DNA of 32,000 bases, from positions 1 to 32,000 of the forward strand of contig JACPWU010000063.1 in NCBI GenBank assembly GCA_016196885.1, read 5' to 3'. This DNA comes from Chlamydiota bacterium (lineage in GTDB: Bacteria; Auribacterota; JACPWU01). Of the stretch, positions 573 through 29,328 are shown piece by piece. A program made the position numbers and the translations under genes. The stretch's first letter is position 1; each line of letters opens with the position of its first letter. Below the pieces are notes generated by a model, which saw only the letters and a program-made list of their open reading frames with translations, was not told where the DNA came from and searched no databases.

Positions 573-650
573 GGAGTCAAGGGTCAAGGGTCAAGGATTT
601 AAAGGTGTTTGGCTTTTTCTTGACCCATACCTCTTGTATCTTGACCCTGC
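573..650. repeat. heptamer-array hairpin (GTCAAGG x3 / CCTTGAC-type arm)
   Basis: GTCAAGG repeated at 576-582, 583-589 and 590-596. Complementary tcttgaccc...cttgaccctg arm at 618-648. A/T-rich loop. Confidence 0.8.
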
Positions 651-696
651 CGGTGTCTCCATTTATATCCAGTGAGTCAAAGGCTTGTTGATAATC

Positions 697-3600
697 ATGA
701 AAAAATCATTGCTTTACTTCGCTCTCTTCTTTTATTTTCTAGCCTTAGGCATTGCTTGGACTTACCCCTTGATTCGATATTTCGATCGGGGGATGCCTTA
801 TGCACACGCCCCCTCTAAAGAATGTGAATTGGTTCAATTGGCCCAAGGAGACTACATTCAGCTCTTTTATTTGATGTGGCTTTTTAAGGATGCGATTCAG
901 GGGGGGACGCCTTTTTTTCGAGATCCATATCAACTAAATCTTCCTCAATATGGCATGCAGGATTGTTTCAATAATCAATACCTTCCTTTATCTGCCGTCT
1001 ATGCACTCTTCGCTTCAATTCTAGGAGATATACAGGGGTACAACTTTTTGGTTCTTATGACGTTTCCCTTAGCAGGATTGGGATTCTTTCTCTTAGCCTT
1101 TGCTTGGACAAAGTCACGCTGGGGGAGTCTGATTGGAGCCACGATTTATGTTCTTTATCCCTTTCGCGTGGCCCATCTTTTGGGAGGGCATCCTGGAGGA
1201 TTTATGTATTTTCTTATTCCCTGGCTCATTTATTTTTACGCAATCGGTTTAGAGCGGAAAAGCTGGGTCTGGGGGTTGGCTGCGGGTCTCTCATTTTTTG
1301 GGCTTGGAATGGATGAGCTTCACATTGCCTATTATTTGCCTCTTTTCCTAGGCATATTTTTAGTGCTCCCACTTTTTCAATACACTTTTAAATTATCCTC
1401 TTCCATTTCTTGGCCTTCTTTATCTAATGTCTCGAAAGGTATTTTTCGCAAAGAATTTGTTCCTTATGTTGCGATCGTTTCATTTTTAGGTAGTTTACTC
1501 GGCCTTTTCTTGAGTTTGTGGTTTCTACGTCGGGTTCAAGAAATATGGATATGGCTTTTAATCCCTTCTGGCGGACTTTTTTTAAATTTTTTCTGGATAG
1601 GTTATGGCTGGTTTTATACAAGATTGACAGGAATCTCTTGGAAAAATGCCTTGAAGGAAGATGTCATCAGTTATGCACCCTTTGTATTTTTACCGGCGTA
1701 CATCGCTCAATTCTATTTTGATATTCCGGCATTGGGTGCACGTCTTTTCAGTGGTTGTTTGGTAGCGATGGGTCTCATCAAAATTTTTCAACTTCTGAAA
1801 CACAGGAAAGAAATTTTAAAAAGATCAGGTTTTTCTGTCAAAGGGGTGAGGGGGCGTTTTAAGGTTTTTGTTTCTTTTGTCATTCCCATGATTCTTCTAT
1901 TTGCATGGCTCTTTTTCGAAAAGCGTACGAAGTTGGATTCATCTGTGGTTAGCGGTGGGCGCTCTTTATCTGTTGTGAAGGGATATTCTGCCCATTTATC
2001 AGATATCTGGAATCGTTCCCAGAATAACATGGAAAGTTTGCTTTATCCTGGAGTCGTTCCCATTCTTCTCTTCGTTTTAGGATTCTTTATTTACACCCGT
2101 TATTTTCGTAAGAAAATTTCCAGTCGCGATAAAATTATTTTTGCCGTCATCGCCTGTCTTTTTATTTTAACGTATTTGCTTTCTTTAGGGTCTACCTTAC
2201 CTCTCTACAATTTATTTTATACCAATGTCCCTCATTTTGATTATATCCGCGTTCCCAGCCGGATTCTCTATTTGAGCTTTTTTCTTTTGTCTTTGCTGGC
2301 AAGTTATGGTTTTAAAATGCTTCAAAGCAAAAAAACAGGTCATACGGCAGGCGTCGCTTGCCTTGTTTTAATAGGCATAGGAATAGATTATTTTCCTGTT
2401 TATCGACCCGGTATCAGTTTAATGCCCAGAGTTCATCCCATTTATGAATATGTTCAGAAGAACTTAAAATTAGATGAAAGAATTTTGGAAGTTCCTATTT
2501 GGCCGGGCGAAAGCTCCTGGTCTTCGATTTATCAATACAATGCAACCCTTTATCGAACCCCCATGCTCAATGGCTATCGCCCCGTTATTTCATCGGATTA
2601 TGTGAGCCATGTTTTTAAACCTCTTTCTCCCTTGAATGCTGGTTATTTTGGACTTGAAGAATGGGAGCTTCTCAAAAAATGGAATGTAAAATTTATCTTG
2701 GTTCATGAAGAGGCCTTCCCTAAAAAGGTGAGTTCTTTCCCTCCCCATTTTACAACTTTAAGTTTTAGACAATCTCCTTTTCTAAAGAATGTGATGAATG
2801 ATCAAAGCACTTACCTTTTTGAAGTGCTGAGTCAGACAAGTCAAATAGATTTGGGACGAGCCCCCGTTAGTCCGATGATGACAGTCATAGAAGGGGAAAG
2901 CTTGAAAAAGAGGATGGGCTCTGTCGTGGAGTTAGAAGCAGCTTCCATGGGGCAGGCCCTTTATGTTTGTGACGAGCCGGCCTTGGGTTGGTGGGCCTTT
3001 GGGAAATCGTGTGGCTTGACAAAAGGTTCTTTCACTGCATCTTTTCGCATGAAGGGTGATTTCCTCAGAGAAAGAAAAGGGGAGGCTGTAGAATTGGAGA
3101 TTTGGGATAAAGATAAAAATTTACTTTTGGCGGATCGCGTTTTAAAGATAGAAGACTTTAATGAGACAAAGGATTTTCAGGAGTTTCAAGTGTCATTTAA
3201 ACTCGATCGTTATAGAGAGGTAGAGCCTCGTATAAGATATGGGGGACGAGGGCCTGTTTGGTTGGACCGGATCCTGTTGGGGTTTGATCAAAAATTTGAA
3301 GGCAAAGATGTGTTAGAGGCAGAAGAACTGTTTCATCAGGGAGAAATTTTAGAGGATAAGAGTGCATCTGGCGGTGAGGTTATTAGAATGGGTAAGCTTG
3401 GAGAGAAACGTAATATTCTTTTTGGCCCTTATCGTTTCTATGATGACGGGCGTTATACCGCTCGATTTTACTTGAAGGCTTCTGAAGGCGTTGAACAACC
3501 CTCTGATCAAGTAGCTGGAACTTTACTTGTAACAACTCTAAGTGGAAATAAGGTCTTATTTAAAAAAGAAATTTCACTTAAAGAGTTAAATCAAAAATTG

Positions 3601-3726
3601 GGTTATCAATCTTTTGATTTGAATTTTGAATTAAAAGAGATTCATGACCTAGAATTTACGGTCCTCTCAGAGGGTCAAGAGGATCTTTATGTGGACTGTG
3701 TTGAGATATCGAGCAAGACAGAATGA
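697..3726 (+). CDS. large polytopic membrane protein, GT-C-like (putative glycosyltransferase; function uncertain) with duplicated soluble C-terminal module
   Basis: 1013-aa ORF in track (TTG at 685); ATG at 697 gives MKKSLLYFALFF. About 600 aa of consecutive hydrophobic helices are followed by a soluble C-terminus holding two ~140-aa tandem repeats. The stop overlaps the next start (ATGA at 3723-3726). Confidence 0.8.
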   Translation: MKKSLLYFALFFYFLALGIAWTYPLIRYFDRGMPYAHAPSKECELVQLAQGDYIQLFYLMWLFKDAIQGGTPFFRDPYQLNLPQYGMQDCFNNQYLPLSAVYALFASILGDIQGYNFLVLMTFPLAGLGFFLLAFAWTKSRWGSLIGATIYVLYPFRVAHLLGGHPGGFMYFLIPWLIYFYAIGLERKSWVWGLAAGLSFFGLGMDELHIAYYLPLFLGIFLVLPLFQYTFKLSSSISWPSLSNVSKGIFRKEFVPYVAIVSFLGSLLGLFLSLWFLRRVQEIWIWLLIPSGGLFLNFFWIGYGWFYTRLTGISWKNALKEDVISYAPFVFLPAYIAQFYFDIPALGARLFSGCLVAMGLIKIFQLLKHRKEILKRSGFSVKGVRGRFKVFVSFVIPMILLFAWLFFEKRTKLDSSVVSGGRSLSVVKGYSAHLSDIWNRSQNNMESLLYPGVVPILLFVLGFFIYTRYFRKKISSRDKIIFAVIACLFILTYLLSLGSTLPLYNLFYTNVPHFDYIRVPSRILYLSFFLLSLLASYGFKMLQSKKTGHTAGVACLVLIGIGIDYFPVYRPGISLMPRVHPIYEYVQKNLKLDERILEVPIWPGESSWSSIYQYNATLYRTPMLNGYRPVISSDYVSHVFKPLSPLNAGYFGLEEWELLKKWNVKFILVHEEAFPKKVSSFPPHFTTLSFRQSPFLKNVMNDQSTYLFEVLSQTSQIDLGRAPVSPMMTVIEGESLKKRMGSVVELEAASMGQALYVCDEPALGWWAFGKSCGLTKGSFTASFRMKGDFLRERKGEAVELEIWDKDKNLLLADRVLKIEDFNETKDFQEFQVSFKLDRYREVEPRIRYGGRGPVWLDRILLGFDQKFEGKDVLEAEELFHQGEILEDKSASGGEVIRMGKLGEKRNILFGPYRFYDDGRYTARFYLKASEGVEQPSDQVAGTLLVTTLSGNKVLFKKEISLKELNQKLGYQSFDLNFELKEIHDLEFTVLSEGQEDLYVDCVEISSKTE

Positions 3727-5360
3727 AAAGAGATGTATCCGTTTTTAATAATAATATCTATGACCTCCTCGTCATTGGAGGCGGGATTTACGGCGCCTTC
3801 ATTGCCTGGGATGCGGTCTTGCGAGGTTTTTCGGTCGCTCTGGTCGAAAGAGGGGATTTTAGCGGCGCTACTTCTGCGAACAGCCAGAAAATTATTCACG
3901 GGGGTTTTCGCTATTTACAGCATGGCGATTTTAAGCGGATGAGGGAGTCCATTCGAGAGCGGACGAATTTGATGAGAATTGCCCCTCATTTGATTCACCC
4001 GCTTCCTGTTTTGGTTCCAACGTATGGACACGGAATAAAGAGCAAAGAAATTTTAAGAATGGCTCTGATGATGTATGATGCAGTCGGTTTTGACCGCAAT
4101 CAACTGTCAGATCCCGAAAAAAGAATTCCAAGAGGACGGATTTTTTCAAAGGAGAAAGTTCTTCAACTGCTCCCGAATTTTCCTCAAGAAGCATTAACGG
4201 GCGCAGGTGTTTTTTATGACGCCACTGTTTACAATTCAGAGAGATTAGTTATTTCTGTCTTAAAATCAGCTGAGCAAAAAGGGGTAAACCTTGCCAATTA
4301 TGTTGAAACCATCGGATTTATTCAGAAGGGGGATCGAGTCACAGGGATCGAGTGTCGTGATGCTTTAACGGGATCTACCTTCCCCGTACAAGCTCGGACG
4401 GTGGTTAACGCCTCAGGACCCTGGTTGTATCGCGTTTTATCTCTTTTAGAACCTTATCGCTCGCGTGTGAAATTTCCCCTGGTGAAGTCCTTTAATGTGA
4501 TCACCCGTTTGCTTTTTGAGAAGTATGCGGTTGGTCTTTACGGAAAAAATTCCTATCAGGATCAAGATGCTTTGTTGAATAAAGGAACGAGACTTTTTTT
4601 TGTGACACCTTGGAGAAATCATTCTGTGGTGGGAACAGCGCTTTCTTATTTTGAAGGTAATCCAGATGAACTGAAGGTGACGTCTGAAGAGATTGAAAAA
4701 TTTTTGGAGGATTTTAATTTGGCTTGTCCTCAAGCAAAATTAAAACCAGAAGAGGTGACCTTTGTCCATCGCGGGTTTTTACCCAGTGCGGGTTTGGGTG
4801 GAAAAGCAGGGGATGTCCAAATCTCAAAAAAGTATCGTATCATCAATCACCGTACGGATGGTTTGAATGGGCTTATTTCCGTCATAGGTGTCAAATACAC
4901 GACGGCTCGAGATGTGGCCGAAAAAGTGGTGGATCATGTTTTTGAATGTCGGGGAGATAAAGCCCCGCAGTCTTTGTCTCGATTCACTCCGGTTTACGGA
5001 GGGCAGATTGAAAAATTCGATGATTTCCTGAAGGATCAGATTAAGAACCGCTTAGCTGGATGGGATGAGAATTTGGTTCGTTCCCTTGTTTATAATTATG
5101 GCTCTTCTTATTCTGAAATAAAGGCCTCAAGCCCTCAGGATTTGATGAGGCACGAGGTGATTCATGCGATTCAGGAAGAAATGGCTCAGAAGCTAGTGGA
5201 TGTGGTTTTACGTCGGACAGAATGGGGGACAGCGGGATGTCCTGAGGATTCTATTCTTGACCTTTGTGCGCAAACCATGGCTTTGGAGTTGGGTTGGGAT
5301 TCAGCGAGAATTCGGTCAGAAATTGAAGAGGTAAAAAAATTTTATGCTTGGAGTATTTAG
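3723..5360 (+). CDS. FAD-dependent oxidoreductase, glycerol-3-phosphate dehydrogenase (GlpD) family
   Basis: N-terminus DLLVIGGGIYGAFIAWDAVLRGFSVALVERGDFSGATSANSQKIIHGGFRYLQ closely resembles the GlpD dinucleotide-binding region. 545 aa. Confidence 0.8.
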   Translation: MKRDVSVFNNNIYDLLVIGGGIYGAFIAWDAVLRGFSVALVERGDFSGATSANSQKIIHGGFRYLQHGDFKRMRESIRERTNLMRIAPHLIHPLPVLVPTYGHGIKSKEILRMALMMYDAVGFDRNQLSDPEKRIPRGRIFSKEKVLQLLPNFPQEALTGAGVFYDATVYNSERLVISVLKSAEQKGVNLANYVETIGFIQKGDRVTGIECRDALTGSTFPVQARTVVNASGPWLYRVLSLLEPYRSRVKFPLVKSFNVITRLLFEKYAVGLYGKNSYQDQDALLNKGTRLFFVTPWRNHSVVGTALSYFEGNPDELKVTSEEIEKFLEDFNLACPQAKLKPEEVTFVHRGFLPSAGLGGKAGDVQISKKYRIINHRTDGLNGLISVIGVKYTTARDVAEKVVDHVFECRGDKAPQSLSRFTPVYGGQIEKFDDFLKDQIKNRLAGWDENLVRSLVYNYGSSYSEIKASSPQDLMRHEVIHAIQEEMAQKLVDVVLRRTEWGTAGCPEDSILDLCAQTMALELGWDSARIRSEIEEVKKFYAWSI

Positions 5361-6865: not shown

Positions 6866-6951
6866 GCTGGGATGGTGGAACTGGCAGACACACTAGCTTG
6901 AGGGGCTAGCGCCCGTTACAGGGTATGGGGGTTCAAATCCCCCTCCCAGCA
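6866..6951 (+). tRNA. tRNA-Leu (anticodon GAG), class II with long variable arm; CCA not encoded
   Basis: Acceptor GCTGGGA/TCCCAGC. Anticodon stem CTAGC/GCTAG with loop TTGAGGG. Variable arm CGCCCGTTACAGGGTAT. T-arm GGGGG-TTCAAAT-CCCCC. Discriminator A. 86 nt. Confidence 0.9.
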
Positions 6952-7135
6952 ATTGCATGTAAAACTTTCAAAGGATGAGGAACTGAACGAGCAAAAAGTC
7001 CTTTCAAGGGCTTGGGGATTTGAACAGGAGGCCTGACCTAATATTAGCAAATCTGCCAGTGGCAGATTTGCAAGTCCCTAAGAGGGCCGGGTGGCCGACC
7101 GGAGGTCGAGTCCTCAAGGCCGAGACCGTAGGCGC

Positions 7136-7154
7136 CAAATCCCCCTCCCAGCAA
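7136..7154 (+). repeat. 19-nt exact direct repeat of the tRNA-Leu 3' end (att-like)
   Basis: caaatccccctcccagcaa occurs at 6934-6952 (inside the tRNA) and again at 7136-7154. The second copy lacks the 5' half of the T-stem. Confidence 0.85.
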
Positions 7155-7160
7155 GACATT

Positions 7161-7197
7161 TTAGATTTTGGATTTTAGATTTTAGAATATGGATTTT
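7161..7197. repeat. tandem heptamer array (TTAGATT-type), no complementary arm
   Basis: ttagatt ttggatt ttagatt ttagaat atggatt. Confidence 0.8.
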
Positions 7198-7357
7198 GAA
7201 ACATTTACCGGGACATCGGTGGTTGTTAAAACGTTTTTATTCTCATCTCACAAGTCGGTTCATTTAAGTTTTATTTTTAACATTCCGACAGCACTAAGGA
7301 TAAGGAAACTCAAGACTATAACAAGCAAGATTATCCATGTAAGAGAGATAGGCTTCC

Positions 7358-7702
7358 TTAGTGTGAAGATGAGAGATTGATCTCCTTCTTCTTTTCAAAT
7401 CTTTCGCAGGTGTCTGTTGCTGTAACCTCCTTGTTCCAAAGGATGCACTTTTGGGTCCAAGGGTTAACAACATAATTCTTACAGTATTGACAAATTTTTC
7501 TTTCCTCATTCGGATTAAAAATGTCCTGGCCTTTCCGTTGGCTATAAGGAATCTCTCCTTCTTGAAATTCAAGTTTACAAAAAGAGCAAATCTTTTTCTC
7601 TCCGATCAGGTTGAAGAAATCATCAAATAATTTTTCAACTTTAAGAGGGGTCTCTTGCTGGCATTTTGGACAGTAGATAAGAACCGGTTTTTTTTCTTGC
7701 AT
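7358..7702 (-). CDS. small Cys-rich (zinc-ribbon-like) protein, unknown function
   Basis: Internal ATG at 7702 gives 114 aa (MQEKKPVLIYCPKCQQ...) with CPKC, CSFC and CQYC motifs plus two more Cys. The longer 153-aa track ORF would run into the nuo promoter region. Confidence 0.55.
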   Translation of the reverse strand: MQEKKPVLIYCPKCQQETPLKVEKLFDDFFNLIGEKKICSFCKLEFQEGEIPYSQRKGQDIFNPNEERKICQYCKNYVVNPWTQKCILWNKEVTATDTCERFEKKKEINLSSSH

Positions 7703-7752
7703 GGGGTGTAGAATAGCATGATTTTGACGGTCAAACCAGGGACTATGATTAC

Positions 7753-7781
7753 TTGACAGTGCGTATGCACGATCGTAGAAT
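7753..7781 (+). promoter_or_regulatory. likely sigma70-type promoter of the nuo operon
   Basis: TTGACA (7753-7758), 17-nt spacer, TAGAAT (7776-7781). Lies about 40 nt upstream of the nuoA ATG. RBS GAAGGA at 7804-7809. Confidence 0.5.
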
Positions 7782-7818
7782 GGCGGTTCTAAAAAGGCGA
7801 CACGAAGGATCCCATTCA

Positions 7819-8172
7819 ATGATGGAATACGCGAGTTTATTGATTGTTTTTGCCTTTGCGGCTTTTGTTGCGGGCCTGCTTATTTTTCTGACCAGTATTC
7901 TGGGTCCGAGGCGGAAGTCCGAAGTAAAGGAACAGCCTTTTGAATGCGGTTTTGATCCTATTACTTTACCTCGAGGCCGCTTCGGAGTGAAATTTTATTT
8001 GGTCGCGATGTTGTTTATTATTTTTGATGTAGAATTGGTTTTCTTGTTTCCTTGGGCGGTTGTGTTTAAGAAGTTGGGAGCGATGGGTCTCTTGGAAATG
8101 ATCGCTTTTTTGGGTATTGTCGTCGTGGGTTTGGTTTATGCCTGGAAAAAAGGGGCATTGGAGTGGGAGTAA
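7819..8172 (+). CDS. nuoA: NADH-quinone oxidoreductase subunit A
   Basis: MMEYASLLIVFAFAAF..., three hydrophobic helices, and QPFECGF motif (ND3/NuoA YECGF). Start chosen at the ATG following the RBS, not the track start 7753. Confidence 0.9.
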   Translation: MMEYASLLIVFAFAAFVAGLLIFLTSILGPRRKSEVKEQPFECGFDPITLPRGRFGVKFYLVAMLFIIFDVELVFLFPWAVVFKKLGAMGLLEMIAFLGIVVVGLVYAWKKGALEWE

Positions 8173-8176
8173 AAAT

Positions 8177-8647
8177 ATGAAAATGTTGGAATCAGCAACA
8201 GGTTTTTTTACTTCTCGTCTTCAAGACGCCATCGGATGGGCGAGGAAATATTCTATTTTCCAATATCCTTTTGTAACCGCCTGTTGTGGGATGGAATACA
8301 TGGCGACGGCTGCTTCTCATTATGACATGGATCGTTTTGGGGCAGGTCTGGTGCGATTTTCGCCTCGGCAATCCGATGTGCTTTTTGTGGTGGGGACCAT
8401 CAGTCAGAAAATGGCGCCGATCTTAAAGAAAATTTATGATCAGATATGTGAGCCCAAATGGGTGGTGGCCTTTGGCGTATGCACCTGTACGGGCGGGTTC
8501 TATGATAATTACGCAACGGTGATGGGGATTGACACGATTATTCCGGTGGATGTTTATATTCCGGGATGTCCTCCCAGACCTGAGAATGTGCTGGATGGAC
8601 TGATGAAACTTCAAGAGAAGATTCAGAGGCAGAAACAAGAAGTATAA
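8177..8647 (+). CDS. nuoB: NADH-quinone oxidoreductase subunit B
   Basis: TACCGMEYMA, FGVCTCTGG and IPGCPPRPE (cluster N2 ligand motifs). ATG at 8177 lies just after the nuoA stop. Confidence 0.93.
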   Translation: MKMLESATGFFTSRLQDAIGWARKYSIFQYPFVTACCGMEYMATAASHYDMDRFGAGLVRFSPRQSDVLFVVGTISQKMAPILKKIYDQICEPKWVVAFGVCTCTGGFYDNYATVMGIDTIIPVDVYIPGCPPRPENVLDGLMKLQEKIQRQKQEV

Positions 8648-8650
8648 AAA

Positions 8651-8721: not shown

Positions 8722-8732
8722 TTTTTGAAAAT

Positions 8733-9215: not shown

Positions 9216-9228
9216 CTTGTAATTCTCT

Positions 9229-10607: not shown

Positions 10608-10611
10608 GACT

Positions 10612-20062: not shown

Positions 20063-20079
20063 TATGAAAAGGAAAAACT

Positions 20080-21552
20080 ATGCAAATCGAATGTGTCAGT
20101 ACAAAAGAGAGTGCAATCAAAGAATGTGATGCGATTATTCTGGGGGTGACGGAGGGTAAAAAAGATTTAGGTTTTCTTCGCGATTTCTTAAGTGAAAATC
20201 TTGTTAAAAGGATTGAAAAATATTTTACCCGAGCAGGAGCCCCCATTCGTAAAAACGACATTCTTTCTTTTGATGGGGATGGACAAATTATTTACACAGT
20301 GGTTCTTTCCAAAGAGCCCTCCATGGAAAATATTCGCCAGGCTTGTGGGCACACGGTCGACTTTGTTTGTGGCCAAGTCCATCGAAATGTTGCTGTGTTG
20401 GCTGATTCTTTTGGAACGAAGGAAGGAAATCTGACGGATCGTGTGGAGGCAATGGCAGAGGTTATTGACCTGGCCCTTTATCGTTTTGATCCCTTTAAGC
20501 CAAAGGATCAAAAGAGGAAAGATTTAAAAACATGTCAGTTTATCTTTCGCGATGGCAAGGACGTTACGAAAGCGCTCAAGGCCGTTGAAATAGGCAGAAC
20601 AGTCTCTGAAAGTGTCAATTTTACCCGTGACCTGGTCAACACCCCTTCCAATGAACTTCCGCCCCGTGTTTTAGCGGACCGGGCTTCTCAAATGGCGAAG
20701 GAGTGCAATATTTCAATCAAGATTTACGATGAAAAAGAACTTCAGAAAATGAAAATGGGGGGGATTCTCGCCGTTTCTCAGGGAAGTGTTCAGGAGCCTC
20801 GAATGATTGTTCTGGAGTATGGAGATCCAAAGAAGCCGGTAGACTTTGCCTTTGTAGGCAAGGGCGTTACGTTTGACAGTGGCGGGATTTCGATTAAGCC
20901 CAGTGATGGAATGGAAAAGATGAAATATGATATGGCGGGAGGCGCTGCTGTGCTAGGTATTTTGAGAACGGCAGCTAAACTAAGTTTAGATGTTCATATA
21001 GTAGGAATTGTTCCTGCGGCTGAAAATATGCCCAGTGGGGCGGCTTATCGGCCTGGAGATGTGATTTGGATGGGTTCAGGAAAGAGTGTAGAGGTTTTAA
21101 ATACGGATGCCGAGGGACGTTTGCTTTTGGGAGACGGGCTTTTTCTTGCCGAGCGGTATAAGCCTAAAATGGTGGTGGATTTGGCCACATTGACTGGGGC
21201 CTGCGTGGTGGCCTTGGGAACAGTGGTTGTAGCGGTTTTGGGCAATGATCCAAAAGTGATTTTGAAAATTAAGGAGGCCGGTGAGCTTTCGGGAGAACGC
21301 GTTTGGGAACTTCCTCTTTGGGATGATTATTTTGATCAGATTAAAAGTGATGTGGCTGAGATTAAAAATGTGGGAGGTAAAGGAGGTGGGACGATTACAG
21401 CAGCCATGTTTCTCAAGCAGTTTGTGAATTATCCTTGGGCGCATTTGGATATTGCAGGGACGGCCTGGGCGGAAGAAAAGAAGCCTTATTTCCAAAAAGG
21501 GGCAACGGGTGTGGGGGTTAGGTTGCTGACGAAAATGATGAGAAAACAATGA
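20080..21552 (+). CDS. pepA: leucyl aminopeptidase (M17 family)
   Basis: VGKGVTFDSGGISIKP and NTDAEGRLLL catalytic motifs. 490 aa. Confidence 0.92.
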   Translation: MQIECVSTKESAIKECDAIILGVTEGKKDLGFLRDFLSENLVKRIEKYFTRAGAPIRKNDILSFDGDGQIIYTVVLSKEPSMENIRQACGHTVDFVCGQVHRNVAVLADSFGTKEGNLTDRVEAMAEVIDLALYRFDPFKPKDQKRKDLKTCQFIFRDGKDVTKALKAVEIGRTVSESVNFTRDLVNTPSNELPPRVLADRASQMAKECNISIKIYDEKELQKMKMGGILAVSQGSVQEPRMIVLEYGDPKKPVDFAFVGKGVTFDSGGISIKPSDGMEKMKYDMAGGAAVLGILRTAAKLSLDVHIVGIVPAAENMPSGAAYRPGDVIWMGSGKSVEVLNTDAEGRLLLGDGLFLAERYKPKMVVDLATLTGACVVALGTVVVAVLGNDPKVILKIKEAGELSGERVWELPLWDDYFDQIKSDVAEIKNVGGKGGGTITAAMFLKQFVNYPWAHLDIAGTAWAEEKKPYFQKGATGVGVRLLTKMMRKQ

Positions 21553-21644
21553 AGAATGAAGAATGAAGAATGAAAAGTGAAGAGTAGAAAATGAAAAACA
21601 AGGGAAGGTTGCGTTCTTCATTTTTCACTTTTCATTCTTCATTG
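21547..21644. repeat. heptamer-array hairpin (TGAAGAA units) between convergent pepA and the orphan gene
   Basis: caatgaagaatgaa (21547-21560) pairs perfectly with ttcattcttcattg (21631-21644). The stem extends to about 33 bp. TGA at 21550, 21557, 21564, 21571 and 21578. Confidence 0.9.
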
Positions 21645-23182
21645 TTTTTTTCTAGCCAGTTCTTCACATCAAAGCTTGCAGATATGTTGAGCTTGCCCTG
21701 GTCCATTCTTCCATAAGCGAGGATGTTTATCTCGTTGTCGGGATGGACGTAGAGGAGAAAATTCAGGCTTTTTGGAAAAGAGGCGGTCCTTTTTGAAAAT
21801 TCAGAATCGGAGGAGACCTTGCTTTCCTTCGTTTTTTCTATGGCCTTTAGGAAATCTTCTTCTGAATTAAATTGAAGTCCTATCCAGTGCTGTTCCTCTT
21901 GATTCTGAGATTCTTTTAAAAAAGTGCTGTACAAGGATTTTTCCTTCCATTGAATTTGATCACACGAGCTGCCTTCCCTTTTTGAGATTTGCGCCTGATC
22001 GGCCTCTTGGAAAAAGCGGTTGAAATCTAGTCTTGTCTTTGTCCCGTCTTCCCTTTTTAGAGTGGCGACCACGAGGGCCTTTGCCTTTTTCTCTCCAGGG
22101 AAAAAATAGAGACTGACAAGATTTTGAATGTGGGCCAGATAATTTCGGAAGAGGGCAGGGGGACCAGCATTTTCTTCCATGGAAAGAACCTTTTCAATTT
22201 CGACGGGTGTATTGAATGAAATTTTCATCAGACCCAATACATTTTCAGGAGGGTTCGTTTCTAGAAGATTTTGAGTGGGAACAGAATTTTTAAATTGAGA
22301 TTCTAATTTAGATCTTGTCACGGGTTCGATTTGTGTATTCAGGTCCAATTTATTATTTTCAAAATGAAATCTTGTGACGATATGGCGGATTTGGGGGAGA
22401 TTGTTTTCTAGGGATTCAAGGGCCAGACTCAGCAGTTTCGATTTGTCAGAGGAGAGAATGGGGTTCAGTTTCACTTTCAGGCTTTCGAGATCTTCATGAT
22501 AGGCTTCGTAGGCCTGCTGGGTGTTGAGAACCATTTCGCAGTCCATTTTTTCTGAAGACGCTTGGCCTGTCTGGGATGAAAGGAAGATCTCAGGTTGAAA
22601 TCCTTTCAAGATGTTCCGATCTCCTGAAACGATGACGAGACTCCCTCGAAAGGCCACATAATATTGAAAAAGCACTTTCTTTTGGAATTGCATCACATCT
22701 GTCTTGGGGTCTTTTTCAAGAGCTTTTAAATAGGCTTCTCTGTCAAATTGGGTCCTTTCTTCGGTGAATTCCTCAATCGGTTGATCTCGGGTCGCTTCCT
22801 TACGTGTAAAGCCACTCCCTCCAAAAAGTCCTTTTCCAAATCCCATGAGAAAAAGGGCCTTGTCCTTCAAGTGGGCAGAGTAGAGAAAGGGGTTGGGATG
22901 GGTTTTAGGGTCTAAGCGGATGTAGAGAATGTCTTGGGATAAATCAAAACTTTCCATTTTTGTGTTTTTGAAAAAGATGGAGAAAATGAGTCCCGTGAGG
23001 GTTTGGCTCGATCGGCCGATCGGTGATAAAAGGGCGTCTATGTGAGTCAGGGTGTCCGATAGATTTTGGAACGAGATGTAACCCAGGCACGTTTCAGGAA
23101 GGCCCGAGGCGTTCTCGCTTGAAGAGATCGGCGTCCAGGAGCAAAAGAGAAAGTAGAAGATTGGAAGAACGAATTTTTTCAT
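21632..23182 (-). CDS. secreted hypothetical protein (516 aa), no recognisable domain
   Basis: N-terminal signal peptide MKKFVLPIFYFLFCSWTPISSS. Long uninterrupted ORF. No motif I can assign. Confidence 0.75.
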   Translation of the reverse strand: MKKFVLPIFYFLFCSWTPISSSENASGLPETCLGYISFQNLSDTLTHIDALLSPIGRSSQTLTGLIFSIFFKNTKMESFDLSQDILYIRLDPKTHPNPFLYSAHLKDKALFLMGFGKGLFGGSGFTRKEATRDQPIEEFTEERTQFDREAYLKALEKDPKTDVMQFQKKVLFQYYVAFRGSLVIVSGDRNILKGFQPEIFLSSQTGQASSEKMDCEMVLNTQQAYEAYHEDLESLKVKLNPILSSDKSKLLSLALESLENNLPQIRHIVTRFHFENNKLDLNTQIEPVTRSKLESQFKNSVPTQNLLETNPPENVLGLMKISFNTPVEIEKVLSMEENAGPPALFRNYLAHIQNLVSLYFFPGEKKAKALVVATLKREDGTKTRLDFNRFFQEADQAQISKREGSSCDQIQWKEKSLYSTFLKESQNQEEQHWIGLQFNSEEDFLKAIEKTKESKVSSDSEFSKRTASFPKSLNFLLYVHPDNEINILAYGRMDQGKLNISASFDVKNWLEKNNEE

Positions 23183-23239
23183 CCTTGTAAGCTTAATTTA
23201 TATTTGCACTTCTTTCAAGAGTCTCATAAGATTTTGGTG

Positions 23240-24451
23240 ATGATAACGCCCTTTGTGTTCAGTTTTAGTCTTTTCGCATTGTTCATTGCCCTCCTGTATG
23301 TCTTTCTCGTCAAGCGCAGTCAAGTGACGCTGAAGTTGAAGCAGCTTGAGCTCCAGAGTTTCTACGAAAAAGAAAAGGAGATGTTGGATCGGATTATCAA
23401 TGCAGCAAGCGATACCCTTCTGTGTCTGGACCACGATAAGAAAGTCCTTTTCATGAACAAGAAGGGTGAGGAGATGACGGGATGGAAGGTGGAAGAGGTG
23501 ATTGGGAAGGCCTTCTGTCGAGAAGTCATTCGGGTGAGGGATTCGAAGGGTCATCTGATTTGTCATTCCGATTGTCCCTTGGAGAAGGCCTGTACTTTGG
23601 CCTCGAGAGAGGCTGTGTGCGAAGGAATGCTTCTGACAAAGAATGGGGCTCAGGCGTGGGCAGAACTTCGCTACAGTGCCCTGGTGGATTCAAAGGGGCA
23701 TTTGAGCTTTGGCATTTTGACGCTGAGGGATATTTCTCAGTTCAAGAAGGCTGAGCACATGCGTTTGCAATTGACTTCAAATATTGTTCATGAATTAAGA
23801 ACGCCCCTTACGTATATTCGGGGATATGTAGATTTACTTTTGATGAGAAAAGTCGGGGGTCTTTCTGAGGATCAGGAGAAATCCCTTCGGGTGATTCGAG
23901 AAAGTGTTTTTAAATTGATTGCGTTGATTGATAATCTCTTGGAGGTGGCCCGCATTGAAGAAGGTAAGTTTTATTTACGATTTGGTTCTGTCCGTTTAAA
24001 CCATTTGATTCAGAAGGTGGTGGATCTTGCAAAGGTCGAGGCCGATCGGAAAAATATTGTTTTGATTTGGGAAGCCCAAGATTCATTTCCTGAAATTTAT
24101 GCTGATGGAAAGAGATTGGAAGAAGTTTTGATGAATTTATTGAGCAATGGGTTAAAATATACCCACCCGGGAGGGAGGATTGAAATAGCATTGGGTGAAG
24201 AAGACGAGACGGTCTCAATTTTAGTGGCAGATACGGGGATTGGGATTGCTGCGGAATATGTGAAGGGTATTTTCGAGCGATTTGCCAGGCTCGATGATGT
24301 GGATGGCAACAAGCCGGGAGAAGGTGCGGGTCTGGGCTTGAACATTGTAAAGAGAGTGGTCGAGGCACATGGAGGAAAAGTGTGGGTTGAAAGCGAAATG
24401 GGGAAGGGGTCAACTTTTTATGTTCAGATTCCGAAAAGAAATGTAGCATAA
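23240..24451 (+). CDS. sensor histidine kinase (TM - PAS - HisKA - HATPase)
   Basis: TM helix MITPFVFSFSLFALFIALLYVFLV. PAS-like segment with a Cys cluster. H-box HELRTPLTYI. G-boxes DTGIGI and GAGLGLNIVK. Start taken at ATG 23240 (track TTG 23204). Confidence 0.88.
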   Translation: MITPFVFSFSLFALFIALLYVFLVKRSQVTLKLKQLELQSFYEKEKEMLDRIINAASDTLLCLDHDKKVLFMNKKGEEMTGWKVEEVIGKAFCREVIRVRDSKGHLICHSDCPLEKACTLASREAVCEGMLLTKNGAQAWAELRYSALVDSKGHLSFGILTLRDISQFKKAEHMRLQLTSNIVHELRTPLTYIRGYVDLLLMRKVGGLSEDQEKSLRVIRESVFKLIALIDNLLEVARIEEGKFYLRFGSVRLNHLIQKVVDLAKVEADRKNIVLIWEAQDSFPEIYADGKRLEEVLMNLLSNGLKYTHPGGRIEIALGEEDETVSILVADTGIGIAAEYVKGIFERFARLDDVDGNKPGEGAGLGLNIVKRVVEAHGGKVWVESEMGKGSTFYVQIPKRNVA

Positions 24452-24455
24452 CAAT

Positions 24456-24514
24456 GGTGAGAGGTGAGGGGTGAGTTTTAAAAGCATTTGTTTTTACTCA
24501 CCTCTCACCCCTCG
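24456..24514. repeat. heptamer-array hairpin (GGTGAGA/GGTGAGG family)
   Basis: ggtgagaggtgaggggtgag pairs with ctcacctctcacccctc. TGA at 24458, 24465 and 24472. Confidence 0.88.
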
Positions 24515-24542
24515 CGCTTGAATTTAAAAATGGAGGAATGTA

Positions 24543-25664
24543 ATGAGAAAGTTTCTTTTGGTTTTAGCTGTGGGTATGGGGCTGGTGATGGGTTGCGGTA
24601 AAAAAAGTGATGATGTCAAAATAGGTGTTTATGCTTCTTTGACGGGCAATACGGCGACTTTTGGAGAGTCCATGCGCAAAGGAATTGAATTGGCTTTTGA
24701 AGAGATCAATGCTCAGGGTGGACTTCTGGGAAAAAAGGTACGATTGATTGTGGAAGATGATCAGAGTAAACCTGAAGAGGCAAAGACGGCTGTGGTGAAA
24801 CTTATCAAACGCGATCGAGTGGTGGCGGTTTTGGGTGAGGTCGCGAGCTCCCGGAGTCTTGCGGGGGCTCCTGAGTGTCAACGTTCCTCAGTTCCTATGG
24901 TGACCCCGGCATCCACCAATCCAAAAGTCACAGAGATCGGAGATTATATTTTTCGCGTTTGTTTCATTGACCCCTTTCAGGGAGAGGTGATGGCCAAATT
25001 TGCTTATCAGACTTTAGGTTTGAGGAGAGTGGCTGTTTTTACGGATGTCAAAAATGATTACAGTGTGGGTCTGGCGAATTATTTTGAGAAAACTTTTCTT
25101 GAGTTGGGTGGAAAAATAATAGGGGAAGAATCCTATTCGGAAGGGGATATTGAATTTAGGGCACAGTTGACGACGATCAAGAGTCAGAAACCAGAGGCTA
25201 TTTTTATTCCGGGCTATTATACAGAAGTGGGCCTCATTGCCCGTCAGGCGAGAGAACTGGGCTTTCAAGGGCCTTTGCTGGGAGGGGACGGATGGGATTC
25301 ACCGAAGACAGTAGAGATTGGAGGCAGTGCGGTGGAGGGATGTTTTTTTAGCAATCATTATGCCTCTGATGATCCTGCCTCCGTCGTTCAAGATTTTATC
25401 CGCTCTTTTAAGGAGAAGTACGGAGAAGTTCCGGATGCCATGGCCGTTTTGGGGTATGATGCGGCTAGAGTTTTGGCGGATGCGATTCACAGAGCCTCTT
25501 CTTTCCAGGGGGCAAAGATTCGTGAAGCTTTGGCCCAAACCAAAGGCTATGAAGGGGTGTCCGGAAGAGTGACGATAGATCAAAACCGTAACGCGCGAAA
25601 AGCAGCAGTGGTTTTGAAAATCGAAAATGGACGGGTGAAGTTTTTTAAGAGGGTTGAACCGTAA
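24543..25664 (+). CDS. livK: branched-chain amino acid ABC transporter substrate-binding lipoprotein
   Basis: Lipobox LVMGCG. Leu/Ile/Val-binding-protein family sequence (GVYASLTGNTATFGESMRKGIELA...). GGAGG RBS. First gene of the livHMGF cluster. Confidence 0.85.
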   Translation: MRKFLLVLAVGMGLVMGCGKKSDDVKIGVYASLTGNTATFGESMRKGIELAFEEINAQGGLLGKKVRLIVEDDQSKPEEAKTAVVKLIKRDRVVAVLGEVASSRSLAGAPECQRSSVPMVTPASTNPKVTEIGDYIFRVCFIDPFQGEVMAKFAYQTLGLRRVAVFTDVKNDYSVGLANYFEKTFLELGGKIIGEESYSEGDIEFRAQLTTIKSQKPEAIFIPGYYTEVGLIARQARELGFQGPLLGGDGWDSPKTVEIGGSAVEGCFFSNHYASDDPASVVQDFIRSFKEKYGEVPDAMAVLGYDAARVLADAIHRASSFQGAKIREALAQTKGYEGVSGRVTIDQNRNARKAAVVLKIENGRVKFFKRVEP

Positions 25665-25669
25665 AGGCA

Positions 25670-25748
25670 GTTGTGAGGGGTGAGTCGTGAGTGGTGAGTA
25701 AAAAAAAACTCCGTTAAAACTAACCCCTCACGACTCACCCCTCACGAC
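25670..25748. repeat. heptamer-array hairpin (GTGAGGG/GTGAGTC family) between livK and livH
   Basis: gttgtgaggggtgagtcgtgagtggtgag pairs with cccctcacgactcacccctcacgac. TGA at 25674, 25681, 25688 and 25695. Confidence 0.88.
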
Positions 25749-25754
25749 AAATAC

Positions 25755-26654
25755 ATGCAATTCCTACAACAACTCATCAACGGCATCAGCTGGGGAAGCA
25801 TTTATGCCCTGATCGCCTTGGGATACACCATGGTGTATGGGGTTTTGCGCCTGATTAATTTTGCCCATGGCGATATTTACATGCTGGGGGCTATGTTTGG
25901 CTATTATGTGGCGGTCTTTCTCGGTGTGGCCGAACATGCCTCTGGTGTGAGAGTGCTGTCTGTTGTTCTGATCAGCATGCTTGGATGTGGATTGATCGGG
26001 GTCGGCATTGAACGATTTTGCTATCGTCCTTTGAGAAAAGCCCCCCGCCTCGCGGCCTTGATGACGGCTGTTGGAGTCTCTCTTCTTTTGGAAAATGGGG
26101 GACAGTTGATTTTTGGGGCCGATCCTAAATTTTTTCCTCCCCTCATTCACACCCGAGAAATTTTTAGGTTTCACGAAATTGTTCTTAATAACATTCAACT
26201 GATGATCTTTGCGGTTTCTCTCCTTTTGATGTTCCTTCTTCACTGGATTGTGATGAAAACTCGCATGGGAAAGGCCATGCGGGCCGTGTCTTTTAGCCAT
26301 GATGCGGCGGGTTTGGTAGGGATTCCTGTGAATCGGGTGATCAGTTTTACTTTTTTTCTAGGCTCTCTCTTGGCTGCGGCCGCTGGTATTTTGGTGAGTC
26401 TTTCCAATCCCAAAGTGGAGCCTCTCATGGGGATTATGCCGGGGCTGAAGGCTTTTGTGGCCGCGGTATTGGGCGGGATTGGAAACATGATGGGTGCGAT
26501 GATCGGGGGTTTGATCATGGGGATTTCTGAAGTGCTCGTCTCCGGCTACATTTCAAGCACGTATCGAGACGCCTTCGCCTTTTTTATTTTAATTTTTATT
26601 TTGCTTTATAAACCGTCTGGACTTTTGGGGAAGACGGGACCGGAGAAATTATAG
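25755..26654 (+). CDS. livH: branched-chain amino acid ABC transporter permease
   Basis: MQFLQQLINGISWGSIYALIALGYTMVYGVLRLINFAHGD is near-colinear with the E. coli LivH N-terminus. Confidence 0.92.
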   Translation: MQFLQQLINGISWGSIYALIALGYTMVYGVLRLINFAHGDIYMLGAMFGYYVAVFLGVAEHASGVRVLSVVLISMLGCGLIGVGIERFCYRPLRKAPRLAALMTAVGVSLLLENGGQLIFGADPKFFPPLIHTREIFRFHEIVLNNIQLMIFAVSLLLMFLLHWIVMKTRMGKAMRAVSFSHDAAGLVGIPVNRVISFTFFLGSLLAAAAGILVSLSNPKVEPLMGIMPGLKAFVAAVLGGIGNMMGAMIGGLIMGISEVLVSGYISSTYRDAFAFFILIFILLYKPSGLLGKTGPEKL

Positions 26655-26729
26655 CGTTCAGCGTTTAGCGTGCAGCGTACAGAAAAACCAGCATCACTCC
26701 TGTCCGCTATACGCTGTCCGCTGTCCGCT
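26652..26729. repeat. heptamer-array hairpin (AGCGNNN units) between livH and livM
   Basis: agcgttcagcgtttagcgtgcagcgtacag faces ctgtccgctatacgctgtccgctgtccgct. Pairing is mainly through the AGCG/CGCT cores. Confidence 0.7.
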
Positions 26730-26734
26730 AAATT

Positions 26735-27676
26735 ATGAAATCGATTCGACAAGTTCTTTTCTGTGTTGCTATTTTATGCTTTTTTTTCTTTCTCAATCAC
26801 TTCCTCACCCTTTACCTCAATCCCTATTACCTTCAAATCCTTATTTATGCCGGGATCAATGTGATTCTGGCGATCAGTCTTAATTTGGTGAATGCCCAGA
26901 CGGGCCAATTTTCAATGGGGCATGCTGGATTCATGGCGGTGGGGGCCTATGCGAGTGCTTTTTTTACTGATCGGGTGGGACCTCTCCTTCATTCTTTTTT
27001 CACGCACGTGCTCGCGTTCCCGGATTTTTTCTCTTCCTTTTTCATTTTTGGTTTTGCCTTGGTGATTGCGGGGTGCCTCTCGGCGGGTGCGGGCTTTATC
27101 GTAGGGTTACCCGTTTTGAGATTGCGCGGAGATTATTTGGCCATCGCGACGCTTGGGTTTGGCGAAATCATTCGGGTGATGATTTTAAACATGGATGTCG
27201 TGGGTGGGGCACGCGGCTTTACCGACATTCCTATCTATACGAATGTCTTCTGGTTGGGACTCTGTGTTTATGGGACTTGGATGGTGATTGGAAACCTCAT
27301 TCATTCAACGAAGGGCCGAGCCTTTTTAGCCATTCGGGAGGACGAGGTGGCGGCGGAATGCATGGGGATTCACACGACGAAATATAAAGTAGGGGCCTTT
27401 GTGATCGGCGCTTTTTTTGCAGGAGTGGGGGGAGCCCTCTTGGCGCATGAAGTCGGGTATTTGCACACGAATTCTTTTACATTTTTAAGGTCCATTGAAA
27501 TTGTGGTGATGGTAGTGTTGGGTGGGACGAGTCTCGTGGGTTCAGCCCTTGCAGCCATTGTTTTGACTCTTTTACCGGAGGTGTTAAGGTTTTTCAGTGA
27601 ATATCGGATGGTCGTTTATTCATTGGTTTTAATTTTTTTGATGTTGGCCAGGGCTAAAAAATGGAAAAGTACTTAA
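26735..27676 (+). CDS. livM: branched-chain amino acid ABC transporter permease
   Basis: LivM-type membrane protein (GQFSMGHAGFMAVGAY, LRGDYLAIATLGFGEI). 313 aa. Confidence 0.9.
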   Translation: MKSIRQVLFCVAILCFFFFLNHFLTLYLNPYYLQILIYAGINVILAISLNLVNAQTGQFSMGHAGFMAVGAYASAFFTDRVGPLLHSFFTHVLAFPDFFSSFFIFGFALVIAGCLSAGAGFIVGLPVLRLRGDYLAIATLGFGEIIRVMILNMDVVGGARGFTDIPIYTNVFWLGLCVYGTWMVIGNLIHSTKGRAFLAIREDEVAAECMGIHTTKYKVGAFVIGAFFAGVGGALLAHEVGYLHTNSFTFLRSIEIVVMVVLGGTSLVGSALAAIVLTLLPEVLRFFSEYRMVVYSLVLIFLMLARAKKWKST

Positions 27677-27722
27677 GTAAAAAAATCCTTCCTTGCTAAC
27701 TTAAGCACTTAGACACTTAGTT
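27670..27722. repeat. array hairpin (CTTAAGT/CACTTAG family); inverted homologue of 29246-29308
   Basis: cttaagtaaaaaaatccttccttgctaacttaagcacttagacacttag closely matches the reverse complement of 29246-29308. Confidence 0.8.
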
Positions 27723-28508: not shown

Positions 28509-28526
28509 TTATCAATTATTTTTCTT

Positions 28527-29243
28527 ATGCTAAAAATCAACAACTTAATCGTCTCATACGGCAACATCAAGGCCCTTCAAGGAGTTTCCCTTGAAGTAAA
28601 AGAAGGGGAAATTGTGACTTTGATCGGAGCCAATGGGGCAGGGAAGACCACTCTTTTAAAGACGATTTCGGGATTGATTGCGCCCGTTTCGGGAACGATT
28701 TATTATTCTAAAAATGAAAAAAATAGTTCTTTAAATCATATGGCTCCCCATGAAATTGTGAGGCTGGGTGTATCTCAAGTCCCGGAAGGGAGAATGGTTT
28801 TTGCGAATTTGTCCGTGGCTGAAAATTTAGATTTAGGGGCTTTTTTGAGAAGGGATGCGCGTGAAGTTAGAGAAAGTCTTGATAAAGCCTTTCAACTTTT
28901 TCCAAGATTGAAAGAGCGAGTGACCCAAAATGCAGGTACTTTAAGCGGAGGAGAGCAGCAAATGCTTGCCATTGCCCGTGCTTTAATGGCAAAGCCCAAA
29001 CTCCTTTTAATGGATGAACCTTCATTGGGTCTTGCACCCATTTTGGTAAAAGAAATTTTTGAAACCATTCGAAAAATCAATCAAGAAGGTCTAAGCATTT
29101 TACTCGTAGAGCAAAATGCGCATCTTGCATTGCAATTGGCCCATCGGGCGTATGTATTAGAGACAGGTAAAATTGTTCTTGAAGGTCCTGCACGTGAGTT
29201 GGCTATGAATGAAGAGGTGAAGAAGGCGTATTTGGGGGCGTGA
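28527..29243 (+). CDS. livF: branched-chain amino acid ABC transporter ATP-binding protein
   Basis: Walker A GANGAGKTT, signature LSGGEQQMLAIARAL, Walker B LLLMDEPSLG. Confidence 0.92.
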   Translation: MLKINNLIVSYGNIKALQGVSLEVKEGEIVTLIGANGAGKTTLLKTISGLIAPVSGTIYYSKNEKNSSLNHMAPHEIVRLGVSQVPEGRMVFANLSVAENLDLGAFLRRDAREVRESLDKAFQLFPRLKERVTQNAGTLSGGEQQMLAIARALMAKPKLLLMDEPSLGLAPILVKEIFETIRKINQEGLSILLVEQNAHLALQLAHRAYVLETGKIVLEGPARELAMNEEVKKAYLGA

Positions 29244-29244
29244 T

Positions 29245-29328
29245 TAAATGTCTAAGTGCTTAAGTGTCTAAGTGATTAAGTTATAAGGAAGGATTTGTTT
29301 TTACTTAAGCACTTGGTTACGCACTTAT
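29245..29328. repeat. octamer-array hairpin (CTAAGTG/CTTAAGTG units) between convergent livF and the hybrid kinase
   Basis: gtctaagtgcttaagtgtctaagtgattaagt pairs with acttaagcacttggttacgcactt. Loop tataaggaaggatttgttttt. TAA recurs every 8 nt. Confidence 0.85.

Follow-up and report, generated by a model that had tools for sequence, protein, structure and literature searches.

We analyzed a 32,000-nt stretch of contig JACPWU010000063.1 (assembly GCA_016196885.1, labelled Chlamydiota bacterium), referred to here at its full length as the window. The ends of its genes carry inverted heptamer arrays, in which tandem copies of a 7-nt (sometimes 8-nt) unit are followed by a loop and by the reverse complement of the array. 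The pairing of the two arms is maintained, the units evolve in concert, and the resulting hairpins are not canonical terminators. An initial annotation had proposed fourteen such sites, and all of them are present where it placed them, each with a period-7 or period-8 array reported by Tandem Repeats Finder (TRF). Together they amount to 942 nt, 25% of the non-coding bases of the window, and of the 20 spacers that measure 30 nt or more they occupy 14. The sites, with the folding energies of those that fold, are the following.

573-650: hairpin in the spacer between the hypothetical genes hyp170 and hyp1013 (both + strand), with GTCAAGG x3 (576-596) as 5' arm, degenerate CTTGACC copies as 3' arm and a T-run on the 3' side of the loop; -28.5 kcal/mol.
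7161-7197: partnerless array of TTAGATT-type units, with 78% matches at period 7 and 89% at period 21.
8651-8721: hairpin between nuoB and nuoC, unit AGTTTTA/GTTCTTA, starting 3 nt past the nuoB TAA and followed at its 3' end by T5; -17.6 kcal/mol.
10576-10607: partnerless 8-nt array, GTTCAAAG x4, with 84% matches at period 8 and 94% at period 16; it fills the nuoD-nuoE junction and starts at the nuoD stop codon.
12517-12595: hairpin between nuoF and nuoG, unit CAGAAGT / ATTCTGA, with the nuoF TAA (12542-12544) at the arm-loop junction; -27.7 kcal/mol.
15729-15809: hairpin filling the convergent spacer between nuoI and a murC-like gene, units GTCGTGA/GGGGTGA; the first unit contains the nuoI TGA (15735) and the murC-like TAG overlaps the last base; -34.6 kcal/mol.
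18371-18412: short hairpin of the GNNGTGA family with a perfect 12-bp stem (18375-18386 / 18393-18404); the stop of the porin gene (- strand) lies 88 nt upstream of the stem end; -21.6 kcal/mol.
19992-20062: hairpin in the divergent porin/pepA spacer, unit AGCNTTC, ending about 15 nt before the pepA start; the sole window hairpin away from a gene 3' end; -31.4 kcal/mol.
21547-21644: hairpin filling the convergent pepA/hyp516 spacer, AATGAAG x6-7 with complement TTCTTCA; the TGA stops of pepA (21550) and hyp516 (21632-21634) lie inside arm units, and T7 follows on the + strand; -33.8 kcal/mol.
24456-24514: hairpin between the PAS histidine kinase gene and livK, unit GGTGAGN (the GNNGTGA family reversed), with GTAAAAACAAAT in the loop on the - strand; -33.2 kcal/mol.
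25670-25748: livK-livH hairpin with four units in each arm (GTTGTGA GGGGTGA GTCGTGA GTGGTGA), beginning 5 nt past the livK TAA and ending 6 nt short of the livH ATG; -49.3 kcal/mol, the most stable of the set.
26652-26729: hairpin between livH and livM, unit AGCGTNC, with periodic internal loops of 1-2 nt; its first three bases are the livH TAG and the livM ATG lies 5 nt past its end; -32.9 kcal/mol.
27670-27722: truncated CTTAAGTG element between livM and livG, with one 5'-arm unit over the livM TAA, the loop kept and the 3'-arm array intact; weak fold, -3.9 kcal/mol.
29245-29328: hairpin filling the convergent spacer between livF and a response regulator-histidine kinase gene (RR-HK), 8-nt unit GTGNNTAA (array 29240-29281, 88% matches at period 16), with the livF TGA in the first unit and GTAAAAACAAAT in the loop on the - strand; -22.7 kcal/mol.

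The initial annotation had described one common design with variable sequence, and the design holds. Eleven of the sites fold into clear hairpins, with stems of -17.6 to -49.3 kcal/mol, and the two sites that had been singled out as arrays without a partner arm (7161 and 10576) are indeed such; at 7161 we searched for a partner arm and found none, nor any stable fold. The shared hairpin form does not extend to site 27670, which is a shortened element of the 29245 type in the opposite orientation. The unit had been said to differ from locus to locus. Its sequence is variable, but the sites represent about nine families and not fourteen independent units: sites 15729, 18371, 24456 and 25670 belong to the GNNGTGA family, sites 27670 and 29245 to the CTTAAGTG family, and the unit AGCNTTC is common to sites 19992 and 26652.

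With a strict lag-match detector, six arrays of period 7 and one of period 8 are detected in the window, none of any other period from 4 to 12, and approximately zero in 50 dinucleotide shuffles. Among short periods, only period 7 is in excess. Several arrays are better fitted in TRF by a period of 14, 16 or 21 than by 7 or 8, as expected of repeated slippage. As in known heptanucleotide repeats, arrays of at least about three head-to-tail copies exceed other non-triplet periods and are mainly intergenic, some of them overlapping gene ends.

Three other kinds of element are dismissed because their anatomy differs. The repeats are not separated by unique spacers, as they would be in a CRISPR array, and there is no cassette context for integron attC sites and no G-tracts for G-quadruplexes. 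The G-quadruplex units GGGAATC or GGGGAYT are not found; most window units have no G-run, and G4 occurs only in the GGGGTGA variants, which alternate with GTCGTGA.

Maintained pairing and concerted change

We compared the window with 165 distinct loci from other uncultivated bacteria (designated L below), starting from a first set of 80 loci around NuoH relatives (1.22 Mb) that was later enlarged to a total of about 2.2 Mb. Of seven relatives with LivH proteins 73-78% identical to that of the window, six carry an array hairpin in the livK-livH spacer. In the seventh, L166, the spacer is 4 nt long and has no hairpin. The hairpins of the window, L163, L165 and L167 are collinear and have four units in each arm. 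When these four are set in register, 75.9% of the cells are standard pairs, versus 23-49% when the arms are slid by 1-3 columns. Both partners have changed in 16 of the 29 pairs, and in 500 shuffles no observed measure was ever equalled. Across the four hairpins every unit boundary keeps its G:C pair, with little or no variation, and the inner positions vary.

The difference between the window and L163 is particularly regular. At unit position 7, the window has A where L163 has C in all 5' units, and T where L163 has G in all 3' units. The same change in every unit of both arms indicates concerted change with compensation.

The nuo junctions of different relatives are empty, or have a heptamer hairpin, or have an ordinary long hairpin; the elements are therefore gained and lost. 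Ordinary long hairpins are seen at nuoD/E and nuoF/G in L008, L052, L006 and L013. The window itself has a non-heptamer hairpin between nuoG and nuoH (14093-14151), in which an outer stem GTCGCCC...GGGCGAC surrounds the inner hairpins CCCGATTTATCGGG and GCCCCATAAATGGGGC; operon junctions here are thus filled by more than one kind of palindrome.

Occurrence in other bacteria

The same design is found in 25 of the 165 loci. In the 1.22 Mb of the first set, period 7 is the commonest short period, with 94 arrays against 3 for period 5, 22 for period 8 and 7 for period 10. In the full set of about 2.2 Mb we count 194 period-7 or period-8 arrays that do not overlap, and 59 array-armed hairpins after removal of redundancy, the latter in the 25 loci. 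Loci labelled Omnitrophota, Planctomycetia and Acidobacteriota show the array, the loop and the reverse-complement array built from other units. That the arrays are inverted is far from chance, as neighbouring same-unit arrays are inverted in 23 cases and direct in 0. Over all loci, stems have a median of 31 bp and loops of 19 nt, and stem mismatches recur every 7 and 14 nt. A unit typically consists of a paired core of about 5 nt and one or two variable positions that are often unpaired.

Some units recur across genomes: GTCCANN in L008 and L162, AGCGTNC in the window and L002, and GATTCCA in L032 and L070. We do not take this recurrence as evidence of transfer. By a rough estimate for random heptamer pairs (at most one mismatch, all rotations, both strands), about 2% would match by chance, and dozens of pairs are expected among about 70 families. 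In the Acidobacteriota loci L032 (2918-2991 and other sites) and L070, there are GATTCCA / TGGAATC arrays and hairpins, whose unit differs at a single position from the GGGAATC (reverse complement GATTCCC) of Xanthomonas, and L031, L024 and L004 have related GGGAT-type units. The livG-livF junction of L162 (6013-6088) holds a purine-rich AGTAAGN-type array with no partner arm or predicted structure, and strongly strand-asymmetric arrays therefore also occur at operon junctions.

Placement at gene ends

Six of the fourteen sites are inside the nuo and liv operons (nuoB/C, nuoD/E, nuoF/G, livK/H, livH/M and livM/G), and three fill convergent spacers (nuoI/murC, pepA/hyp516 and livF/RR-HK). In the window, the upstream stop codon is 0-6 nt away from the 5' foot, or is inside the site, as for nuoF, nuoI, pepA, hyp516, livH, livM, livF and, partly, nuoD; a stop inside the site is seen at 8 of 15 flanking gene ends. 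At livH and livM, only 5-6 nt separate the 3' foot from the next ATG. No Shine-Dalgarno-like sequence is present between the hairpin foot and the start of livH (25749-25757) or livM (26730-26737). With a stable stem this close to the start, initiation must either melt the stem or use a ribosome terminating upstream.

Across all loci, the 59 hairpins include 36 in co-directional, 13 in convergent and 4 in divergent spacers and 2 inside open reading frames (ORFs), and the arm begins at a median of 7.5 nt from the upstream stop codon. For the 24 co-directional hairpins with both flanking genes called, the median hairpin length is 76 nt, and the spacer that remains after subtracting the hairpin has a median of 15.5 nt, similar to the 19-nt median of those co-directional junctions in these loci that lack a hairpin. 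Folding of the RNA would therefore bring the upstream stop about as close to the downstream start as at an ordinary operon junction.

Where a stop-free arm enters a coding region it is translated. NuoF, NuoI, LivM and hyp516 have variable, lineage-specific C-terminal tails encoded by arrays. In the window, the NuoF tail DRSQKSE is encoded by CAGAAGT units (12517-12544), and in L008 the nuoF frame (8304-8350) continues across four GTCCACG-type units (KSTVHSPRTTEGSHA) before ending in the loop. NuoD, LivK and LivH, whose C-termini are conserved, end at their usual position, and the hairpin follows directly.

The observation that most of these hairpins lack a U-tract, and so are not classic intrinsic terminators, is upheld by the larger set, where TTTT occurs within 9 nt at 6 of 62 hairpin ends. 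The combination of a GC-rich stem, a short loop and a U-tract is not found (the median loop, again, is 19 nt), and a terminator scan of positions 7000-26900 flagged none of the ten array sites there.

Origin and possible role of the hairpins

The interpretation that we favor, and to which we give about an even chance, is that these are inverted heptamer simple-sequence repeats, renewed by slippage and by copying between the arms, and tolerated as looped-out stem-loops similar to repetitive extragenic palindromic (REP) elements. A 7-nt (sometimes 8-nt) unit would be multiplied by slipped-strand copying, with blocks of two or three units recopied later. Template switching in quasi-palindromes is a known mutational mechanism. 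Complementarity of the arms could be kept by intrastrand template switching of that kind (quasi-palindrome correction) or by selection on pairing, the units would evolve in concert, and small families of copies would spread through the genome. The transcript would fold into an imperfect stem-loop of 20-35 bp, looping out an insertion of about 76 nt; looping-out keeps the stop and the next start close, which may be why only palindromic arrays persist within operons. A role at the RNA level is plausible, judging from the sequences, and would be of REP type: a 3'-end or intercistronic hairpin that protects the upstream mRNA, a site for a double-strand RNase, or an attenuator of read-through.

Several observations weigh against this interpretation. 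Stems this long at 5-6 nt from the livH and livM starts might be harmful and not neutral. Slippage explains neither the preference for 7 nt nor the boundary G:C pair that is invariant over four lineages, and an oriented loop motif common to some hairpins with different arms fits the dispersal of whole elements better. The hairpin at 19992 is in a divergent 5' region. The covariation comes from four sequences only, with the register set by hand and a shuffle control that ignores relatedness, and the genes of the relatives are crude longest-ORF calls. L163 and L164, the only pair of assemblies for one relative, are identical and show no polymorphism in unit number. Finally, the wobble strand test for selection on the RNA gives sense-strand G.U against A.C mismatches of 69:54 (P=0.21), and of 46:29 (P=0.064) in the window-like subset, a lean towards the sense strand that is not significant.

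Alternative explanations

The hairpins may instead be non-autonomous mobile elements, resembling REP-derived hairpin doublets (REPINs) or MITEs (miniature transposable elements with inverted repeats), with an enzyme encoded elsewhere for which the units are binding sites or the loop is a cleavage site. We regard this as possible but rather unlikely. It would account for the copy families, which have 2-5 members within 14-32 kb, in REP-like placement (co-directional and convergent; PMC3733652): the window has four GNNGTGA and two CTTAAGTG copies within 14 kb, in both orientations. Five window copies, also in both orientations, have the loop core GTAAAAA..AAAT..CC.TT..AAC in common, and in L162 three hairpins lying within 14 kb (3052-3180, 5086-5185 and 9300-9407) have an invariant 17-nt arm block, CAAAAATCAAAATGACA, with unrelated loops. 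The L162 pattern, same arms with different loops, is the reverse of that of the window superfamily, same loops with different arms. A loop motif of general occurrence was considered and rejected, GTAAAAAMAAAT being limited to one window superfamily and not general elsewhere. Presence and absence at orthologous nuo junctions would also be expected of mobile elements. Nevertheless, no RAYT-like (REP-associated tyrosine transposase) or other transposase gene is found in the window, and the GTAG/CGTC tag of REPs is seen at 1 of 12 hairpin feet, the chance level (0.096 per hairpin). No target-site duplication, as MITEs would leave, is visible between filled and empty livK-livH junctions, and the arms are internal arrays and not the terminal repeats of a longer element. 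The unit-by-unit collinearity of the livK-livH hairpins over 73-78% LivH identity points to vertical descent, and the partnerless arrays and the many singleton unit types fit local slippage better.

It is unlikely, to our judgment, that the hairpins are no more than a neutral mutational by-product of slippage and DNA-level template switching, persisting only where harmless. Such a process would yield arbitrary unit sequences that differ by locus and lineage, gain and loss at orthologous junctions, arrays that spill into coding ends, and concerted unit change as an outcome of copying; the lack of a significant wobble strand bias is also consistent with it. It does not sit well with the hairpin kept at livK-livH in six of seven relatives, four units per arm being retained in four, nor with a compact stretch of genome in which 14 of the 20 spacers of 30 nt or more are filled. 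The avoidance of divergent spacers (4, versus 13 convergent) suggests a link to transcript 3' ends.

A more speculative proposal, also improbable as it stands, is that these elements form an unnamed, widespread class of self-renewing "heptad palindromes" in uncultivated PVC-group (Planctomycetes, Verrucomicrobia and Chlamydiae), Omnitrophota-like and Acidobacteriota bacteria. Lying at operon junctions, they would have arms rebuilt in concert, in 7-bp steps with the boundary G:C pair as an anchor, and they would be selected for mRNA processing or translational coupling, or for recognition of the 7-bp step by a dedicated enzyme or a periodic binding protein.

The initial annotation had emphasized stop triplets, from which one may propose a frame-independent stop trap: units selected to halt ribosomes in every frame. 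We find this very unlikely. In the window the underlying observations are largely correct. The TGA triplets reported at consecutive units are all there, spaced by exactly 7 nt, several gene stops are inside a first unit, and a stop on either strand is present in 14 of 14 consensus units (nine of nine families) against a null of 0.51-0.64. TGA or TCA is present in 10 of 14 units (six of nine families), where about 11 had been counted; the null is about 0.27, the chance per heptamer being 0.25-0.28 on recomputation and not one in five. Site 26652, which had been set apart as the exception, is none, since the AGCGTTC unit junction gives TCA and the site begins with the livH TAG. Stops in every frame of both strands, which had been claimed for each array and its partner arm, occur at only 6 of the 14 sites, where shuffles expect 3.0, and the sites contain 130 stop triplets overall against 116 expected from shuffles.

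Outside the window, among 57 independent unit families from 26 other loci, 30 are free of stops on both strands. TGA or TCA is found in 20 families versus 11.8 expected (P ~0.008), a mild excess, and any stop in 27 versus 20.7 (P ~0.05); the null is taken from whole-locus heptamers and probably under-estimates stops in the AT-richer spacers. In the L163 livK-livH ortholog, every unit has TGC in place of the TGA of the window, and stop-free arms are translated as C-terminal tails with no apparent harm, as in the L008 NuoF through a whole arm. The stop triplets are largely a by-product of AT-rich spacers and of arrays that include or abut the stop codon of the gene; we infer that a filter against long junk protein tails adds to their excess. 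The evidence gives no support to a new translational stop device.

Even less probable is a periodic binding platform, in which one single-strand binding protein per unit (for example a cold-shock-domain protein, each domain taking up about one heptamer) would control whether the hairpin is open or closed. The strict 7-nt period, the invariant boundary G:C (a G-T start) and the mismatches at 7 and 14 nt would suit it, and binding of CspB to heptamer direct repeats is discussed in PMC4679880, but the units are wholly different between the hairpins of one genome, such that no single sequence-specific protein fits, and no candidate gene is linked. That the hairpins are ordinary intrinsic (Rho-independent) terminators is hardly credible: they do lie downstream of stop codons and in all three convergent spacers of any length, with T7 at 21547 and T5 at 8651, but 6 of 14 are inside the nuo and liv operons, their loops are long and their stems AT-rich, a T-tract follows only 6 of 62 ends, and none of the ten sites scanned was flagged.

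Genomic context and source organism

The window has 44% G+C, and its genes are the following (minus-strand genes marked).

5' part: two hypothetical genes, a GlpD-like oxidoreductase, a glycosyltransferase (- strand) and tRNA-Leu.
nuo block: nuoABCDEFGHI.
Middle: a MurC-like ligase (- strand), a BFN-domain gene (- strand), a BBP2 porin (- strand), pepA and a hypothetical gene (- strand).
3' part: a PAS histidine kinase, livKHMGF and three two-component genes (- strand).

The tRNA-Leu (anticodon GAG, 6866-6951) is the sole match of the window to Rfam 15 at gathering score, and the hairpins match no curated RNA family. It is followed by 801 nt (6952-7752) up to nuoA, where the only features are the partnerless TTAGATT array and two weak ORFs on the minus strand that do not match Pfam. 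A second long gap, of 727 nt between the BFN-domain gene and the porin (17766-18492), contains the short hairpin at 18371 and a doubtful 86-aa ORF (17890-18150), also with no Pfam match; the matching place in L163 has two Band_7 genes.

The source is an uncultivated bacterium, probably of the PVC group. In the NCBI, the source (by its exact LivH, P0001) and its nearest relative (P0004) are both labelled as a "Chlamydiae bacterium" metagenome-assembled genome (MAG). Among GTDB species representatives, the closest NuoH, at 71% identity, is that of a Candidatus Omnitrophota MAG; together with the full nuoA-I set, this makes the Chlamydiae label look uncertain. A search of metagenome contigs with PepA gives a best match of no more than 51% identity. 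A cyanobacterial origin, which the short tandemly repeated repetitive (STRR) sequences of cyanobacteria would bring to mind, is ruled out by nuoE, nuoF, nuoG and the BBP2 porin in the window.

Comparison with known repeat classes

The hairpins had been thought not to belong to a described repeat class. Intergenic heptamer repeats have in fact been published (PMC4692102, PMC4679880), and the kind is already known. Over-represented intergenic heptanucleotide repeats were reported by Mrazek 2007, with slippage as their proposed origin, and three tandem heptanucleotides in Calothrix, all as cited in those two papers; a paper on such repeats states that there had been no detailed study of them as of 2015. 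Two published surveys of hairpins and non-coding elements do not mention the present design. What is new here is that one genome has many unrelated units, that the palindromic form dominates, that it occurs in uncultivated lineages (PVC-like and Acidobacteriota), that the arms covary with concerted unit change, and that arrays encode protein tails.

The palindromic heptamer form can dominate the non-coding DNA of a compact genome, with hairpins that are kept in place across considerable divergence and undergo compensatory and concerted change, and its arrays rewrite the C-terminal tails of housekeeping proteins. This makes a tractable case for two questions, why the period is 7 nt and how an array and its mirror image stay matched. 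It is also a warning for annotation, in that repeat turnover shapes gene ends and operon junctions in such genomes.

In Xanthomonas (Rehm 2015, PMC4692102) each genome has 70-75 inverted pairs of GGGAATC arrays that converge and could form stem-loops; the repeats are transcribed, and their position is kept between two species while their length varies. Like the present hairpins, they have tandem 7-nt units, are mostly intergenic, co-directional or convergent, and come as facing pairs, and in the window too same-unit arrays lie close together on opposite strands. They differ in having one G-rich unit genome-wide, studied as a G-quadruplex former, whereas the window has about nine unit families in 32 kb, mostly AT-rich and with no requirement for a G-tract. 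Arm covariation and array-encoded protein tails are shown in the present hairpins.

The cyanobacterial STRR sequences (Mazel 1990, Mrazek 2007), so far as later accounts describe them, are similar in their head-to-tail heptamers in excess over other periods, in their intergenic location and in their occasional presence in operons. Unlike the present arrays, they are described there as having few fixed units per genome and as mostly single arrays; Nostoc has few inverted pairs (PMC4692102), in contrast with the dominance of the inverted form here (23:0). The TAACTGA repeats of marine Beggiatoaceae (MacGregor 2015, PMC4679880) are also intergenic heptamer arrays, of 2-6 copies, which carry stops in all three frames and in some cases lie over upstream stop codons. 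They consist of one unit, nearly always direct and just upstream of starts, with one inverted case, and so are not hairpins.

REPs and the related bacterial interspersed mosaic elements (BIMEs) and REPINs (PMC3733652, PMC3333891) resemble the present hairpins in being imperfect palindromes with several families per genome in both orientations. REPs are defined by a GTAG or CGTC tag (PMC3733652). They are placed as the present hairpins are, downstream of genes in co-directional or convergent context, and are probably transcribed as RNA hairpins. They differ in their size of 20-40 bp, their unpaired tag and their linked RAYT transposases, where the hairpins of the window have arms of 20-35 bp made of tandem units, no tag, and no transposase seen in the window. 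Long imperfect hairpins with internal loops are also found between cistrons of one transcript, as at the RNase III sites in the early mRNA of phage T7 and in REP-stabilised operon segments such as malE-malF; they may leave a protective 3' stem on the upstream segment. Those sites are conserved in sequence, were shown experimentally, and have stems that are not arrays; the arms of the hairpins described here, known from their sequence, are arrays.

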